DNA of 21,745 nucleotides, taken from IMG/VR virus record IMGVR_UViG_3300029102_000023; one strand, written 5' to 3'. This stretch comes from a virus. Lineage: Duplodnaviria; Heunggongvirae; Uroviricota; Caudoviricetes. The notes under the pieces are model-generated. The model saw only the letters and a program-made list of their open reading frames with translations. It had not been told where the DNA came from and ran no database searches. Both the position numbers and the translations under genes were made by a program. Every line of letters starts with the position of its first letter. The stretch's first letter is position 1. Positions 5,056 to 18,473 of this stretch are shown in pieces.

Positions 5056-5100
5056 TGGCTTTTCAGCCACGTAGTCGAGAGTCGACGTTGTTTAAAGAGC
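5056..5100 (-). promoter_or_regulatory. nutL candidate (boxA GCTCTTTAA plus boxB hairpin TGGCTGAAAAGCCA) on the leftward transcript
   Basis: Minus-strand reading gives GCTCTTTAA...cgactacgt-GGCTGAAAAGCC, nearly parallel to the nutR candidate at 7737-7782 (GCTCTTTG...cctacgt-CGCTGAAAAGCG). Both lie immediately downstream of the divergent early promoters. Confidence 0.5.
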
Positions 5101-5148
5101 CTGCCAGTCTGTTCCATTTGGCTTCCAGCGTCCTGCTGACGGTTAAAT

Positions 5149-5190
5149 AGTACGATATGTACTTTACAAGATCAATACAATTTGTTGTAA
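5149..5190. promoter_or_regulatory. OL/pL region candidate: dyad symmetries AGTACGATATGTACT and TTACAA-N15-TTGTAA
   Basis: Imperfect palindromes upstream of nutL/N; the AGTAC...GTACT motif recurs in the cI-cro intergenic region (AAGTACATATTGTAT). Exact operator boundaries and the -35/-10 elements are not resolved. Confidence 0.35.
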
Positions 5191-5361
5191 GTTGGCGTGG
5201 TTTTTTATAACGCTTTGTATTTAATAGTGTTGTTTTTTAGCGTGGATGTATTGCCTCGGCGATGTAAGGAGAGATCAGAATTGCGTGGTTTAGTGGGTTG
5301 CATCTATTTATTTTTCAATAAATATAATTGGTTATGTGTTTTTAGGTGGGCGAACGTGAGG

Positions 5362-5393: not shown

Positions 5394-6146
5394 TTATGCT
5401 GCAAGTCTCTTAACCCAAGTCTCTCTTTTGGAGAATGGTAGAACTTGGCTTGATTCATGGAAGAGTAAGGAGAGTTGTTGCATTTGATCACCAATTGCTT
5501 CGCTGTCTATAACAACAAATCTGTTGTTATACTCCTCACTTGAAGCTTTAAGATCAATTAGTTTCCCAAGCAATGAGTAAGCACTATTCCAGCTTCCTCC
5601 GTGTTTCACGCTTGATGTAAAAACGTATTTAGGTATGTCGGTTTTTATTGTTACAGGGACGGTAATTTGATGTCCACTCAAGCCATATACGTTTTCACGA
5701 AGAGAAAGTGCGTCTCTAAGCTCTGTGTGATATAGATAATCAATAACCATACTTTCAAACTTTTCAGCTTGAACTGGCTGATACCAGTCTAACGACAAAG
5801 TTGATGCGAGTATACCAGCTCTAATTATGTTCGATGTAATCGCACCGACATCCTTTTCTGTTGCCCAAGCAATGATTTCTCCTCGAGCATTGAGTTCTGC
5901 GCCTTCTTTAAGCAGTAATTGTCGTATCTCATCAAGTCGTTTTTTGGTAAGCGAGATCCCTCTTGCCTCCATATTCATTAAGGCATCGCATCTGTCACTA
6001 ACTAAATACCTACCATTGACTTCACGGATAAAGGCACCGACATGCTCTCCATCATCACAGTAAGTGAATGGACTGATAATTCTCAAGGTCTTGCCTATTG
6101 GATGGCATTCGAAACCTAGTTGTGAGATCACTGTTGAGCACATCAT
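5394..6146 (-). CDS. Unknown protein B, 250 aa (second gene of the two-gene cassette in the rexAB-equivalent position)
   Basis: Long intact ORF; ATG at 6146 overlaps the gene A stop (ATGA), indicating translational coupling; no obvious transmembrane segments; family not recognised. Confidence 0.7.
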   Translation of the reverse strand: MMCSTVISQLGFECHPIGKTLRIISPFTYCDDGEHVGAFIREVNGRYLVSDRCDALMNMEARGISLTKKRLDEIRQLLLKEGAELNARGEIIAWATEKDVGAITSNIIRAGILASTLSLDWYQPVQAEKFESMVIDYLYHTELRDALSLRENVYGLSGHQITVPVTIKTDIPKYVFTSSVKHGGSWNSAYSLLGKLIDLKASSEEYNNRFVVIDSEAIGDQMQQLSLLFHESSQVLPFSKRETWVKRLAA

Positions 6147-6700
6147 ATTCCAAACCCCATTTGCCCCGACTCATCTTCAAGCGGTAAAGGTATTCTCCCA
6201 GAGTAAGTTATGTTCAGATGTTTACAGAAGTAATTCCAATACCCTACCAGGTCATCTGGGTTTATGTCATCTTCGATTGGAAACGCTATTCTATCACTAT
6301 AGTATCCAGCTTCTTCATAGTATACATGGTAGTGAGCACCGTAAATGATATCTTGGTACTTCGGATGATCGACCTTGTAACTATTCGTGTGTTTGTCAAA
6401 GTGATAGGTATCTACCGCGAAAACCCTCTTGTTATGATAGAAAGCAATAATATTTATTTTAGGGTAAGAAATCGGGTCATCAGGTTCTGAATCCTGATCT
6501 GGTTTCCATTTCAGTTCAAACTTTAGCCCTTGTATAGGTATACAATCCTCATCCAAGGGGATGATATGGGCTTGTAGCCACATATCAGAGCGACTTGGTT
6601 TCTGTTTCCATTTAACGCCAGAAAAGTTAACTATTTTTTTACAATAAAGTACTTTATCAACTTCTACTTGGCTTGGCTGATAATCATCTATTTTTGCCAA
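6143..6700 (-). CDS. Unknown protein A, 185 aa (first gene of the cassette downstream of cI)
   Basis: Intact ORF 39 nt downstream of the cI stop on the same strand; acidic, Tyr/His-rich, no hydrophobic segments; the track start at 6700 is a TTG codon (next in-frame ATG is at codon 40), so the true start is uncertain. Confidence 0.65.
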   Translation of the reverse strand: MAKIDDYQPSQVEVDKVLYCKKIVNFSGVKWKQKPSRSDMWLQAHIIPLDEDCIPIQGLKFELKWKPDQDSEPDDPISYPKINIIAFYHNKRVFAVDTYHFDKHTNSYKVDHPKYQDIIYGAHYHVYYEEAGYYSDRIAFPIEDDINPDDLVGYWNYFCKHLNITYSGRIPLPLEDESGQMGFGI

Positions 6701-14886: not shown

Positions 14887-15383
14887 TGCCTCCATCATTA
14901 CGAAAAGCCGTTGCTGCTGCTATTGGTGGCGGAGCAATTGCTATAGCATCAGTGTTAATCACTGGCCCAAGTGGTAACGATGGTCTGGAAGGTGTCAGCT
15001 ACATACCATACAAAGATATTGTTGGTGTATGGACTGTATGTCACGGGCATACAGGAAAAGACATCATGCTCGGTAAAACGTATACCAAAGCAGAATGCAA
15101 AGCCCTCCTGAATAAAGACCTTGCCACGGTCGCCAGACAAATTAACCCGTACATCAAAGTCGATATACCGGAAACAATGCGCGGCGCTCTTTACTCATTC
15201 GTTTACAACGTGGGTGCTGGCAATTTCAGAACATCGACGCTTCTTCGCAAAATAAACCAGGGCGATATCAAAGGCGCATGTGATCAGCTACGTCGCTGGA
15301 CATATGCTGGCGGTAAGCAATGGAAAGGTCTCATGACTCGTCGTGAGATTGAGCGTGAAATCTGTTTGTGGGGTCAGCAATGA
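14886..15383 (+). CDS. rrrD: SAR endolysin (lysozyme, phage 21 R-type)
   Basis: 165 aa with N-terminal Gly/Ala-rich signal-anchor-release segment ([20 protein letters not shown]) followed by a lysozyme-like domain; start overlaps the holin stop. Confidence 0.92.
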
Positions 15384-15841
15384 ACAGAGTAACCGCGATT
15401 ATCTCCGCTCTGGTTATCTGCATCATCGTCTGCCTGTCATGGGCTGTTAATCATTACCGTGATAACGCCATTACCTACAAAGCCCAGCGCGACAAAAATG
15501 CCAGAGAACTGACGCTGGCGAACGCGGCAATTACTGACATACAGATGCGTCAGCGTGATGTTGCTGCGCTCGATGCAAAATACACGAAGGAGTTAGCTGA
15601 TGCGAAAGCTGAAAATGATGCTCTGCGTGATGATGTTGCCGCTGGTCGTCGTCGGTTGCACATCAAAGCAGTCTGTCAGTCAGTGCGTGAAGCCACCACC
15701 GCCTCCGGCGTGGATAATGCAGCCTCCCCCCGACTGGCAGACACCGCTGAACGGGATTATTTCACCCTCAGAGAGAGGCTGATCACTATGCAAAAACAAC
15801 TGGAAGGAACCCAGAAGTATATTAATGAGCAGTGCAGATAG
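15380..15841 (+). CDS. rzpD: Spanin inner-membrane subunit Rz (i-spanin), 153 aa
   Basis: [26 protein letters not shown]... N-terminal TM segment then coiled-coil-like region; ATG at 15380 overlaps the endolysin stop (ATGA). Confidence 0.9.
15600..15782 (+). CDS. rzoD: Spanin outer-membrane lipoprotein subunit Rz1 (o-spanin), embedded in Rz in the +1 frame
   Basis: [23 protein letters not shown]... lipobox VVGC; proline-rich ([15 protein letters not shown]); fully nested within Rz. Confidence 0.85.
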
Positions 15842-15872
15842 AGCTGCCCATATCGATGGGCAACTCATGCAA

Positions 15873-16166
15873 TTATTGTGAGCAATACACACGCGCTTCC
15901 AGCGGAGTATAAATGCCTAAAGTAATAAAACCGAGCAATCCATTTACGAATGTTTGCTGGGTTTCTGTTTTAACAACATTTTCTGCACCACCACAAATTT
16001 TTGCTGCATCGACAGTTTTCTTCTGCCCAATTCCCGAAACGAAGAAATGATGGGTGATGGTTTCCTTTGGTGTTACTGCTGTAGGTTTGTTTCCAACAGT
16101 AAACGTCTGTTGAGCACATCCTGTAATAAGCATTGCCAGAGCGGCAGAAAACAACATTTTTTTCAT
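15873..16166 (-). CDS. bor: Bor lipoprotein (serum-resistance moron), 97 aa
   Basis: MKKMLFSAALAMLITGCAQQTFTVGNKPTAVTPKETITHHFFVSGIGQKKTVDAAKICGGAENVVKTETQQTFVNGLLGFITLGIYTPLEARVYCSQ; lipobox ITGC; matches lambda Bor. Confidence 0.9.
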   Translation of the reverse strand: MKKMLFSAALAMLITGCAQQTFTVGNKPTAVTPKETITHHFFVSGIGQKKTVDAAKICGGAENVVKTETQQTFVNGLLGFITLGIYTPLEARVYCSQ

Positions 16167-16646
16167 CTTATTATCCTGCATTGTTAAAAACGGCAGAATC
16201 CTATGTGACAACAATTAAACGATAGTTAAATGGATTGATGAAAATTAAAACTACACAGGTGGGCTCAGACTATTGGAGGAAGTTGGGGACACTCAGAATC
16301 CTGTGGAATGAAATAAACCGGTCTATCCGTCCATTACCCTTTTAGCTGCGCTGTATCGTCGCCGTATTCCCGCATTAACCATGACCGTAGCCCGACGGGG
16401 AATTCCTTCTGCGTGAGTGTGCGGGAATAATTAAAAACGATGCACACCGGGTTTTTACCGCGTTAATGATTCGCGGGTTTATCCCGGTGCGATGGTGGAA
16501 GAAACAGGAAGCTGTATTACAGAAAGTGCTACTACTGTATCCCGATGCGATGTATGTAATGTGAGTCAGATAATGGCACAGGATGTGGTGATGTGGCAGT
16601 CTGGAACACAGGATATATTGTCAGAATAAGACCCGTAGGAATAAAA

Positions 16647-16973
16647 ATGAAAAGACGCCTTTTACTACTTTTTCTGTTATCTGTCCTGGCAGTGGGATGC
16701 TCGCAGCAAAAAGCTGATGAGCCCCGGCAATTAGTGACGGTGTATCCACGATATCCGGAATATGCTGCAGCAAATTATATCAAGGGGCTGGTTGAGGTTA
16801 AGTTCGATATTGGTGCTGATGGGACTGTGACACGGATCGTTTTTCTCCGCTCAGAGCCTCATAATTTGTTTCGTGATGAAGTGGTGAAGGCCATGGCGAA
16901 ATGGCGATTTGAAAAGAATCGCCCCTGTCAGGGAGTGAAGAGACAATTTATCTTTACGCCGTCACGTCCTTGA
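16647..16973 (+). CDS. Lipoprotein with TonB C-terminal-like domain, 108 aa (prophage moron)
   Basis: Signal peptide plus lipobox MKRRLLLLFLLSVLAVGC; mature region YPRYPEYAAANYIKGLVEVKFDIGADGTVTRIVFLRSEPHNLFRDEVVKAMAKWRFEK resembles the TonB C-terminal fold motif pattern; domain call is from motif resemblance only. Confidence 0.6.
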   Translation: MKRRLLLLFLLSVLAVGCSQQKADEPRQLVTVYPRYPEYAAANYIKGLVEVKFDIGADGTVTRIVFLRSEPHNLFRDEVVKAMAKWRFEKNRPCQGVKRQFIFTPSRP

Positions 16974-17095
16974 TGCTTCCAGGTAGAGAGGGGCTGGAAG
17001 CAGGAGAAAAATGAAAGAGCCAGCGGTTATATTTTTGTCATGGCTGACGAGGAATGATGGAAGAAGGCGTTGTATGCCACACAACGCCTCACTGT

Positions 17096-17449
17096 TCATT
17101 TCTTCTTTTTCTCTGGTGGAACCCGATGAATAAGAGTTGCACTGGTTTCCGATGAGATGGCGATATACTCGGGCAAAGTATGCTGGCAGTTTTCCAACTG
17201 GTCAAAAATACCTGCTCTCGTCTGTTGCAATGCCTGCAGCATGCGGCGGCAATGCGCCTTGCTTTTACTAACCATCTTTCCTTCCTCTATCAGTCGCTGC
17301 GTGAACTCATCATGGAATACCAGGTAAATGCGGATGTTATCGGTTTTGGCTACGCAGCATAGTACAAAACGGACAGGTGCATCCCGGGACGGGGGAGGCG
17401 TCACATGTCCCTGTGATGGTTGTTCCGGGTAATGTACTGTGTGGGGCAT
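17096..17449 (-). CDS. Hypothetical protein, 117 aa (possibly 3' part of a frameshifted gene)
   Basis: ORF overlapping the preceding one by 113 nt in a different frame; C-terminal two-thirds (IYLVFHDEFTQRLIEEGKMVSKSKAHCRRMLQALQQTRAGIFDQLENCQHTLPEYIAISS...) looks protein-like. Confidence 0.3.
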   Translation of the reverse strand: MPHTVHYPEQPSQGHVTPPPSRDAPVRFVLCCVAKTDNIRIYLVFHDEFTQRLIEEGKMVSKSKAHCRRMLQALQQTRAGIFDQLENCQHTLPEYIAISSETSATLIHRVPPEKKKK

Positions 17450-17588
17450 AAAAATGTCCGATAATTTTACTTTCTACCGCAGTTAGTTGATTCGTTGGTC
17501 CTGGTAGCACATTGGGCGAGGATTTAAATGCCAGGCAACTGAAGGATGATGTCGCAAGGGAGATAGCGAGAATATTTCTGATTTTCAT
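17337..17588 (-). CDS. Hypothetical small exported protein (possibly 5' part of a frameshifted gene)
   Basis: ATG at 17588 with GAGG upstream gives MKIRNILAISLATSSFSCLAFKSS... (signal-peptide-like); C-terminal portion is low-complexity and overlaps the next ORF in another frame. Confidence 0.3.
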   Translation of the reverse strand: MKIRNILAISLATSSFSCLAFKSSPNVLPGPTNQLTAVESKIIGHFYAPHSTLPGTTITGTCDASPVPGCTCPFCTMLRSQNR

Positions 17589-17736
17589 TTGATGATGCCT
17601 CTGTGTGAAATGACGGTAAACGACGCACTTGTGCCGGCACATAATAGCAAGCACCATAATAGATCAGATTCGATTCTTGCTGTAAGTGATAATTATTCTC
17701 GTTTTCGGGTCCTTTCCGTCGATCCAACAGGTTACG

Positions 17737-17748
17737 GGGCGGCGACCT
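17737..17748 (+). other. cos: cos site: cosN 12-nt cohesive-end sequence GGGCGGCGACCT (cosQ upstream, cosB downstream to nu1)
   Basis: Sequence cagGTTACG-GGGCGGCGACCT-CGCGGTTTTTCACTATTTATGAAAATTTTT matches the lambda cohesive-end junction as I recall it, placed correctly between the lysis region and nu1. Confidence 0.85.
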
Positions 17749-17924
17749 CGCGGTTTTTCACTATTTATGAAAATTTTTCAGGGAAAATCGTGTCGGTACT
17801 TCTCGAATATAACTTTTTGTTTTTTTTAATATTGCATCCGTAAAGGTCCGACATGAAAGTGTCCGAAAATGCCTTTTTCTGGCGTTTTCATGTCGGGCCT
17901 TGTATTTGATAATGGGTTGTTTTC

Positions 17925-18473
17925 ATGAAGGTTAATAAAAAGAGGCTTGCCGAAATTTTCAACGTGGACCCGCGGACGATTGAACGCTGGCAGTCTCAGG
18001 GACTCCCTTGCGCCTCCAAAGGTAGTAAGGGCATTGAATCTGTATTTGATACTGCCATGGCAATTCAGTGGTATGCGCAGAGGGAAACTGATATCGAAAA
18101 CGAAAAGCTCCGCAAAGAACTGGACGATTTGCGTGCGGCAGCGGAGTCAGATTTACAACCCGGCACCATTGACTATGAACGCTACCGGCTCACAAAAGCG
18201 CAGGCAGATGCGCAGGAACTGAAAAATGCCCGTGAAGACGGAGTAGTGCTGGAAACTGAACTGTTTACCTTCATTCTGCAACGTGTGGCACAGGAGATTT
18301 CGGGGATACTTGTGCGTGTGCCGTTGACATTACAGCGTAAATATCCGGACATTTCACCATCACACCTTGATGTGGTGAAAACTGAAATCGCGAAAGCCTC
18401 CAATGTTGCAGCTAAGGCCGGTGAAAACGTGGGCGGGTGGATCGATGATTTCAGACGCGCAGAAGGCAGCTAA
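17925..18473 (+). CDS. nu1: Terminase small subunit Nu1
   Basis: 182 aa [65 protein letters not shown]... clearly homologous to lambda Nu1 (N-terminal winged HTH). Confidence 0.92.

Follow-up and report, generated by a model that had tools for sequence, protein, structure and literature searches.

What does a lambdoid prophage keep between its lysis genes and its packaging site, and does the non-coding DNA found there belong to the gene that follows it? The stretch of DNA analysed here, referred to as the window, is a 21,745-nucleotide lambdoid prophage sequence (IMG/VR record IMGVR_UViG_3300029102_000023). The interval in question (16215–16973) lies between a bor-type gene and the cos site, and it ends with a gene for a small lipoprotein carrying a TonB C-terminal (TonB_C) domain. 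Our analysis separates this interval into two subjects. One is a conserved, structured non-coding element that is independent of the TonB_C gene, and the other is the gene itself, which is old and under strong purifying selection. The best combined explanation, to which we give a probability of roughly 0.45, is that the lipoprotein would act as a decoy for TonB-dependent transport, while the element would act separately, in cis, as an RNA of the late transcript. The element is the more surprising part, since it is present in lambda and in K-12. The coordinates of all features are collected in Table 1.

The element is about 165 nt long (16346–16509). It was delimited by aligning the loci that carry the window's type of TonB_C gene (type A), a second type (type B) and 85% variants; in this alignment, homology stops exactly at the TonB_C stop codon. 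Between contexts in which the neighbouring coding sequences have reached synonymous saturation, the element keeps approximately 90% identity. Because the flanks are unrelated between contexts on both sides, the element is a discrete unit and not a part of the TonB_C gene.

A sensitive search found the element in 432 phage records, always in the late-gene orientation. Its hosts include lambda, HK629/HK630, 933W-type and other Shiga toxin (Stx) phages, mEp460, ES18 and SPN3UB. In complete E. coli genomes, 11,733 sites are distributed over 4583 of 5426 genomes (84%), with a median of 2 and a maximum of 11 per genome, and among the 12 matches listed in E. coli genomes none overlaps an annotated feature. 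K-12 MG1655 carries it unannotated in the cryptic prophage DLP12, between borD and ybcV (locus L134, NC_000913 ~579004–579177). In species-representative genomes, an exact-pattern scan locates the core in Escherichia, E. albertii and Intestinirhabdus and otherwise only in a few contigs that are probably contaminants; more divergent copies were recovered with a second pattern.

A census of 130 contexts displays one invariant order: Rz/Rz1, optional cargo, the element, optional cargo, and the packaging side. The upstream cargo is bor (on the minus strand), a 74-residue open reading frame (ORF), a 166-residue ORF or Rha. The downstream cargo is either TonB_C or YbcV/p78 (minus strand), often followed by a small minus-strand gene. 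The order ends on the right with cos/Nu1, HNH-TerS or the Stx-phage TerS. When there is no downstream cargo, cosQ-proximal sequence begins within about 40 nt of the element.

No reading frame is kept in the element. Its variable columns fall 18, 19 and 15 over the three codon positions, and the commonest open frame meets stops in the window, lambda and ES18 copies. Three annotated or possible ORFs of the upstream region were examined and rejected. The 45-residue CPT_21_72 of phage 21 (16492–16629) is not conserved, being shortened in the type-B lineage to 21 codons. The minus-strand 37-residue ORF and ORF B85 of Stx phages show no codon periodicity, and stops interrupt their frames. The description of 16215–16646 as non-coding, made in an earlier note on this DNA, is therefore supported by the lack of kept frames, with the correction that the intergenic region starts at 16167, at the bor ATG, and not at 16215.

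We also compared the element with known RNAs. Rfam 15, whose families include AgvB, AsxR, STnc100, IpeX and DicF, gives no match in 16320–16660 at E≤10 and none in 16215–16973 at E≤1, and a scan of 15800–18000 returned only three weak matches, all outside 16215–16973. The known prophage small RNAs AgvB, AsxR, Pas and STnc100 were rejected as identities for the element: they are located near PR' or Q and not here (AgvB, AsxR and Pas map near PR', upstream of the lysis genes), and no Rfam match connects them with it. No paper on the element's sequence was found in our literature search. The element is a previously unannotated, widespread and structured sequence that matches no curated RNA family.

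The fold was approached in two ways. RNAalifold, applied to 78 sequences, predicted the long-range helix P1, the helix P2 and a terminal hairpin, with compensatory changes. A manual fold model followed, for which the set was enlarged by divergent copies found in Salmonella phage ES18, Intestinirhabdus alba and additional viral contigs. In this model, P1, P2, P2b and P3 make up the 5' domain. The 3' domain comprises P4, the GGG/CCC helix that closes it, and an H-type pseudoknot.

The dyad reported in the earlier note, ATTCCCGC (16366–16373) with GCGGGAAT (16423–16430), is real and corresponds to P2, although the coordinates of its 3' arm were off by 2. It is also longer than first reported, extending to TATTCCCGCA (16365–16374) with TGCGGGAATA (16420–16429), with 10 of 10 positions complementary. 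A perfect inverted repeat of at least 10 nt arises in 6 of 300 shuffles of the region, which makes it modestly unusual alone. Across copies, this 10-nt inverted repeat is conserved and covarying; locus L148, for example, carries ACCUCCACA/UGUGGAGGU in place of UAUUCCCGCA/UGCGGGAAUA.

The remaining helices change in a similar manner. In P2b, pair 39–61 flips from A-U to U-A in three sequences, and the loop of P3 varies while its stem stays. The P4 stem reads CCGCG/CGCGG, CUGUG/CGCAG, CAGC/GCUG or CGGCGA/UCGCUG, depending on the lineage. The pseudoknot is composed of S1 (e.g. GUCGC/GCGAU), S2 (UCCGGU/ACCGGA) and an invariant purine loop containing GGAAGAA. S2 also occurs as UCCUGU/ACAGGA and CUCGAU/AUCGAG, and the ES18-like copies, 7 of the 34 sequences, show a swap at three of its pairs. 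The first pair of S1 is G·U, C-G or A-U, and the counts for an S1 pair are GU 14, CG 14, UG 2 and AU 1. Double changes are seen at three of the five S1 pairs and four of the six S2 pairs. An alternative pairing, CACCGGG/CCCGGUG, is possible in the window copy; it is less supported than S2 across sequences and was set aside.

For the covariation statistics we used 34 sequences, namely 29 cluster representatives at ≤95.5% identity and five divergent copies. Paired cells amount to 95.8%, against 89.6 ± 0.4 in shuffled controls. Pairs with double changes number 17 against 9.4 ± 1.5, and double-change cells 89 against 24.9; for each of the three measures, none of 500 shuffles reached the observed value. 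Controls with slid partners leave 36–59% of the cells paired. We notice 134 G·U cells against 21 A·C cells, so that pairing is 95.8% when read on the plus strand and 87.9% when read on the minus strand. This excess of G·U over A·C, together with the plus-strand pairing, suggests an RNA with the same sense as the late transcript. The fold z-score is −2.59 for the plus strand and −1.71 for the minus strand. On the late-transcript strand, a multi-helix fold of the 5' domain and an H-type pseudoknot in the 3' domain both have the support of covariation. The suggestion of 'regulatory or RNA structure' upstream of the lipoprotein gene thus holds as far as a covarying fold is concerned, but the fold belongs to a separate, widespread element and is not specific to the TonB_C gene.

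Several observations weigh against a functional RNA. Limited diversity and recombination-linked sequences leave a modest number of independent compensatory events, and the fold model was partly derived from the same sequences on which it was tested. P1 and S1 contain mismatches in the copies of lambda and DLP12. In the window copy, which is of the phage 21 type, a deletion of 17 nt relative to most copies removes the 5' arm of S1, and the remaining S2 contains a G16486·A16506 mismatch. At least lambda, DLP12 and phage 21, whose copies are degenerate in part, can therefore dispense with the element. In addition, minimal cos fragments suffice for packaging.

Could the element be conserved only as DNA, as a homology linker for lambdoid module exchange and/or as the bor promoter region? 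Recombination has clearly passed through it. Homology of the window to ev207, 2G7b and the Lambda_* phages ends at 16455, between the 5' and 3' domains, which places a mosaic junction inside the element, and the copies of the Stx type are hybrids. Locus L022 contains two copies (5061–5234 and 6011–6184), about 950 bp apart, which bracket the 74-residue ORF. A minus-strand bor promoter is annotated inside the element in lambda and HK630, and the degeneracy of the lambda and phage 21 copies would also fit a DNA role. Yet a homology patch needs no particular sequence, and the helices are kept by compensatory changes; G·U is favoured over A·C on one strand. Most copies, the window included, have not kept the lambda Pbor hexamers TGGACA and TACAAT, and the element also occurs in phages without bor, so we rejected the lambda bor promoter as the cause of conservation. 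Service as a homology patch does not by itself account for the compensatory changes or for the strand bias, and we regard conservation purely as DNA as unlikely.

In L022 the duplicated arrangement looks like a cargo-shuffling recombination intermediate; elsewhere, the 74-residue ORF lies upstream of a single element copy. The element sits at a module boundary where recombination junctions fall, which resembles the 'boundary/linker sequences' of lambdoid mosaics reportedly described by Juhala (2000) and Clark (2001).

Returning to the RNA reading, we propose that the element acts in cis within the late transcript, between the lysis genes and the packaging and morphogenesis genes. It may serve as an mRNA processing or stability element, or as a leader of the packaging genes. 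Its sequence is at the same time a homology patch for the exchange of cargo such as bor and TonB_C. The put antiterminator RNAs of HK022 and the leader pseudoknot of T4 gene 32 are likewise compact, conserved non-coding structures in a phage operon, and the element also has an H-type pseudoknot with a purine-rich loop. It differs from them in having no Rfam match, in its site after Rz/Rz1 and before cos/terminase, and in its combination of a 95-nt 5' domain with the pseudoknot.

The second subject is the lipoprotein gene. Its product starts with MKRRLLLLFLLSVLAVGC, followed by SQQKADEPRQ..., and has the layout of a lipoprotein signal: an MKRR n-region, an LLLLFLLSVL h-region and an AVGC lipobox. 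The signal peptide covers residues 1–17, Cys18 (16698–16700) is predicted to be lipidated, and the residue at +2 is Ser and not Asp; sorting to the outer membrane was judged from this sequence pattern only. A tether of about 8 residues separates Cys18 from a complete TonB C-terminal domain (residues ~26–104).

The domain matches Pfam TonB_C (PF03544) with E=7e-13 and 49.2 bits (cut-off 24.6) and TIGR01352 with 47.4 bits (cut-off 27.1). The TonB equivalog models give 45–69 bits, far under their cut-offs of 265–448, which indicates that the protein is not the TonB energy transducer proper. The best matches among solved structures are E. coli TonB C-terminal domains, with a gapless alignment over TonB 150–230 at 41% identity. 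Postle and colleagues list seven functionally important residues in the TonB carboxy terminus: Y163, F180, G186, F202, W213, Y215 and F230 (bioRxiv 10.1101/2021.12.08.471779). Six of the seven are identical in the phage protein, and Y215 is replaced by F. In the complexes of TonB with FhuA and BtuB, strand β3 pairs with the Ton box (PMC11658791). The equivalent strand is kept in the phage protein (residues 97–103).

An AlphaFold model, calculated from a shallow alignment of 16 sequences, shows an α-β-β-α-β arrangement with helices at 36–42 and 77–90 and strands at 47–55, 61–70 and 97–103. When this model was compared with the PDB by Foldseek, ranks 1–14 were all C-terminal domains of TonB or TonB homologues, and ranks 1–9 had a probability of 1.00. 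The structure prediction, at a mean predicted local distance difference test (pLDDT) score of 61, therefore gives a fold like that of the TonB C-terminus. It agrees with the earlier proposal of a TonB-C-like lipoprotein between bor and cos, which the profile scores above cut-off and the lipobox also bear out. By these criteria the lipoprotein is a member of the TonB_C domain family and not a TonB.

The comparison with E. coli TonB makes the difference clear. The C-terminal domain of TonB (PDB 1U07; 2GSK with BtuB; 2GRX with FhuA) belongs to the same Pfam family and has the same predicted fold. TonB also has a transmembrane anchor, a His20 region and a proline-rich spacer, whereas in the phage protein the N-terminal anchor and the spacer are replaced by a lipoprotein signal and the His20 region is missing. 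Lacking these parts, the phage protein would have no link to the energy of ExbB/ExbD.

The gene is 100% identical to CPT_21_73 of phage 21. It is present in 1225 of 5426 complete E. coli genomes, at ≥99% identity in 1203. Public records name it 'TonB C-terminal domain protein', 'TonB family protein', 'TonB fragment' or 'partial tonB-like membrane protein encoded within prophage CP-933N'. Our literature searches found no functional study of a phage TonB-like protein, and the genome paper of phage 21 is silent on the gene. The gene is thus not new as an annotation, yet it is functionally unstudied.

Its relatives split into type A, which includes the window, and type B, with about 70% identity between the types. 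The lipobox Cys is kept in all full-length relatives, and position +2 is S, T or A. Between type A and type B, the ratio of nonsynonymous to synonymous substitution rates (dN/dS) is 0.10–0.13 at a dS of about 1.5. These values speak for an old gene held by strong purifying selection, and not for a fragment in decay. Type B is found in HK97-like E. coli phages (HNH, Terminase_2, TerL) and in Stx1a phages; there too it stands between Rz/Rz1 and the packaging genes, in late-gene orientation, and bor is missing. In Klebsiella phage ST13-OXA48phi12.4, a 41%-identical lipoprotein (LLGC followed by SSS) occupies the same slot, and another phage has a 44%-identical version between a DUF2514 spanin gene and HNH/Terminase_4. 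In total, at least four phage backbones hold this architecture in the slot between lysis and packaging. An exhaustive search by profile yielded 110–152-residue proteins that combine a lipobox with TonB_C, in 11 clusters at 50% identity (12 with the ambiguous P0120).

The gene had been called a moron, and the comparison of close relatives agrees with this as regards identity and placement. The phages ev207, 2G7b and Lambda_* are 95–99% identical to the window up to 16455 and then continue without the TonB_C gene, so the gene behaves as movable cargo that is present or absent between conserved flanks; the 130-context census agrees. The lambda morons bor/iss and lom are likewise accessory envelope genes of the late region between conserved flanks, and the TonB_C gene adjoins bor/iss. 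The difference is that bor has a mapped promoter and a serum-resistance phenotype, whereas the TonB_C gene is known here from its sequence.

How might such a protein act? We propose that a lipid anchor holds it in the inner leaflet of the outer membrane, level with the Ton boxes. In this place it could dock by β-strand pairing on the Ton boxes of TonB-dependent transporters without delivering energy, and likewise on those of imported group-B colicins; it might also trap the C-termini of TonB or ExbD. Competition with cellular TonB would lower TonB-dependent uptake, and the lysogen or infected cell would become less sensitive to TonB-dependent phages (of the T1, phi80 and HK022 type), colicins, microcins and sideromycins, at the cost of reduced uptake of siderophore iron. 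We consider this Ton-box decoy mechanism plausible, with moderate confidence. The decoy reading is consistent with the Ton-box-pairing strand and the aromatic residues, the predicted outer-membrane targeting, the purifying selection and the recurrence in several lineages.

A precedent for the mechanism may be found in the TonB C-terminal fragments exported to the periplasm, which are said to inhibit transport by FhuA and FecA as well as sensitivity to phi80 and colicin M (Howard and colleagues, reportedly in J Bacteriol in 2001). Those fragments were reportedly likewise uncoupled periplasmic C-terminal domains of similar length; they were engineered, soluble and overexpressed, whereas the phage protein is natural, predicted to be lipid-anchored and anciently diverged (dS is saturated).

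The phage lipoproteins Llp (T5) and Cor (phi80, HK022, N15), with which the earlier note had compared the protein, offer a parallel in size and location. They are described as small outer-membrane lipoproteins that block FhuA from the periplasmic side and exclude phages (bioRxiv 10.64898/2026.03.26.714494). The TonB_C protein is unrelated to them in sequence: searches of Pfam at E≤1 and PHROGs at E≤0.01 give only TonB_C, phrog_1267 and phrog_34172. Llp and Cor target one receptor, whereas a TonB-domain decoy would act on the Ton box common to all transporters.

All six carriers of type A (phage 21, ev017, Perceval, PhiR47_2, PhiR57_1 and PhiR63_2) also carry sitABCD, which adjoins the side tail fibre genes (in phage 21, OL657228 21967–24500; locus L135 7468–10001). 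Sit is an uptake route for iron and manganese that is independent of TonB. The co-carriage could weakly suggest a compensation for reduced siderophore uptake, or it may reflect shared ancestry. The association is weak because the carriers are close relatives, many sit-positive phages have no TonB_C gene, and the type-B carriers have no sit.

On the other hand, a number of points count against the decoy. The confidence of the AlphaFold model is moderate. TonB residues Q160 and R166 are implicated in contacts with the Ton box and FhuA, and both equivalents are Tyr in the phage protein. PADLOC returned no match for the lipoprotein. Phage 21 uses LamB, so self-exclusion is unlikely. A standard scan found no convincing sigma-70 promoter and no terminator for the gene, and no terminator follows it. 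PHROGs names the family phrog_1267 'Rz-like spanin'. Finally, the three profile-search clusters that we looked up (P0041, P0050 and P0117; loci L196, L198 and L200) lie in ordinary chromosomal, non-phage neighbourhoods. These homologues suggest a more general envelope role; they also suggest an uncharacterised cellular family of short TonB_C lipoproteins, from which the phage genes may derive. The chromosomal neighbours are ahpC/ahpF-type genes and a glutathione S-transferase gene, an acetyltransferase gene and a phosphotransferase system gene, or a hydrolase gene.

Some of these points would fit a different role, in which the lipoprotein is a lysis or envelope accessory, anchored in the outer membrane, that binds peptidoglycan or periplasmic partners and, being made late, modulates envelope integrity or spanin action. 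The gene always follows the holin, endolysin and spanin genes closely and shares their strand, it has no clear promoter of its own, PHROGs places its family under lysis, and the non-phage homologues hint at a general envelope function. Yet a complete Rz/Rz1 pair is already present in the window, and the predicted fold is a globular TonB_C domain with no spanin features. From these two facts, the 'Rz-like spanin' label looks like an annotation transfer, and the record of Stx1 phage NC_004913 leads to the same view, since it gives the same name to B85. In addition, bor, a proven lysogenic-conversion gene, shares the zone, and many phages with identical lysis cassettes have no such gene. We regard a lysis-accessory role as quite improbable. 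The B85 ORF of that RefSeq record (locus L011, 1496–1741) overlaps the non-coding element, and its name, too, looks like an error of annotation transfer.

Returning to the lipoprotein gene, we examined how it may be expressed. Its leader contains two islands, GATAAT (16569–16574) and an extended −10-like sequence TGTCAGAAT (16619–16627), and a Shine-Dalgarno AGGAA (16637–16641). The islands are kept among type A, type B and the 85% variants, and TGT(C/T)AGAAT (16619–16627) is found in every lineage. We treat the two islands as weak promoter candidates only. The gene could be expressed from the weak, conserved candidate of extended −10 type, by way of the Q-antiterminated late transcript, or by both routes.

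The dyads upstream of the gene might alternatively form an intrinsic terminator or attenuator that ends transcription of the bor region or the lysis genes before TonB_C. The earlier note had pointed to GTGTGC...GCACAC followed by a T-run, and the window copy indeed has GCACACCGGGTTTTT after a possible stem. This dyad (16417–16422 with 16442–16447) is at chance level, being one of 16 such 6-mer pairs in 550 nt. Its closing C-G becomes C·A in 36 of the 77 distinct related sequences, namely those with GATACACAC, the T-run is not conserved (GGGGTTTACC, GGGTTTAGC and similar sequences stand in its place), and a scan finds no terminator on the plus strand there. A terminator is thus very improbable.

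That the ORF is a functionless, decaying fragment of a captured tonB, as database names ('TonB fragment' and 'partial tonB-like' in ev017, Perceval and EDL933) and truncated database variants might imply, is strongly disfavoured by the dN/dS of ~0.1 over a dS of ~1.5, by the added and conserved lipoprotein signal on a full domain, by an architecture common to at least four phage lineages and many chromosomal relatives, and by the ≥99% identity in 1203 genomes.

Beyond the combined explanation favoured here, a bolder joint reading can be formulated. The element would be a new class of cis-acting RNA at the lysis/packaging boundary, controlling the processing, stability or translation of late mRNA, and the lipoprotein would be a new exclusion factor that disables TonB-coupled import as a whole, with sitABCD compensating for the siderophore iron that is lost. 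We find this larger claim possible but doubtful.

If the decoy is true, all traffic that depends on TonB would be tuned by one phage gene in about a fifth of sequenced E. coli, among them many extraintestinal pathogenic E. coli (ExPEC) strains in which the gene lies beside iss. The effect would extend to siderophores, vitamin B12, colicins, microcins, sideromycin antibiotics and several phages, and it would bear on the host range in phage therapy, on bacteriocin ecology and on siderophore-conjugate antibiotics. The element, for its part, is an unannotated, conserved and covarying RNA-like structure that most E. coli genomes contain and that lies in the late operon of the phage family studied in most depth. 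It would add a so far unexplored level to the control of late genes, and it would be a sequence landmark for the shuffling of bor/iss and TonB_C cargo between phages.

Table 1. Features around the late-region interval, in window coordinates; RNA helices are listed within the element that contains them.
Feature	Position	Strand	Details
Rz	15368–15841		complete pair with Rz1
Rz1	15600–15782		complete pair with Rz
bor/iss-type outer-membrane lipoprotein gene ('cargo A' slot, left neighbour)	15873–16166	−	Pfam Lambda_Bor, E=1.7e-30
AT-rich spacer upstream of bor	16167–16345		GC 0.385; ~95% identity with lambda-like phages
Conserved non-coding structured element, candidate late-transcript RNA	16346–16509	+	
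P1, GUAUCGU/ACGAUGC	16353–16359 with 16437–16443	+	99.2% of cells paired; pair 4–93 UG/UA/CG
P2, UAUUCCCGCA/UGCGGGAAUA	16365–16374 with 16420–16429	+	6 of 10 pairs with compensatory double changes
P2b, GUAG/CUGC	16387–16390 with 16409–16412	+	around P3
P3, CCC/GGG	16391–16393 with 16398–16400	+	inside P2b
Mosaic recombination junction	16455/16456		left lambda/ev207-like, right phage-21-like
P4 hairpin, CCGCG/CGCGG	16458–16476	+	closed by GGG 16449–16451 with CCC 16483–16485
Pseudoknot remnant	16484–16508	+	S2 CCGGU 16484–16488 / ACAGG 16504–16508; loop GGAAGAA 16497–16503
TonB_C gene leader	16510–16646	+	
TonB_C-only lipoprotein gene	16647–16973	+	108 aa
Conserved 58-aa phage ORF (MVSKSKAHCRR...), right neighbour	17096–17272	−	phrog_4843 full-length, E=5.5e-46
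cosQ	17707–17713	+	phage 21 annotation mapped onto the window
cosN cohesive-end sequence, GGGCGGCGACCT	17737–17748	+	read directly from the sequence

The window is 99.9% identical to Escherichia phage PhiR57_1, and phage ev017 is 100% identical to it across most of its length. Over 16215–16973, it is 100% identical to classical phage 21 (OL657228), whose curated annotation runs from the pinholin, signal-anchor-release (SAR) endolysin, Rz/Rz1 and bor through this interval to cosQ. The gene to the left of the interval is named Bor in phage 21 and iss in E. coli IHE3034, and the AT-rich spacer next to it presumably holds the bor promoter of the window variant. On the right, cosQ and cosN mark the boundary of the late-region cargo zone, and Nu1 starts at 17925.

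In the ExPEC strain IHE3034 (NC_017628; locus L147, 718–1818), the bor homologue is annotated as iss, a virulence marker. A TonB family protein (WP_000830178.1) is encoded about 480 bp from iss, and the conserved element is flanked by both cargo genes.

Two minus-strand ORFs to the right accompany the type-A TonB_C loci and lie outside the finding proper. The 58-residue ORF travels with these loci; it is absent from the phage 21 record, which annotates small plus-strand ORFs there, and it occupies the position of the minus-strand DUF3950/YlcI gene of other phages. The other, a putative 106-residue ORF (17337–17657), has no match in Pfam or PHROG. After an internal start it reads like a signal peptide (MKIRNILAISLATSSFSCLA...), and it is found together with type-A TonB_C loci.

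A Fur-box-like palindrome, GATAACCATTATC followed by GCGGGTCCT, is seen downstream of the element in eight loci (L041, L017, L021, L083, L100, L105, L107 and L108). We rejected it as a mark of iron-regulated cargo; it is cos-proximal sequence, and its equivalent in the window is 17701–17717.

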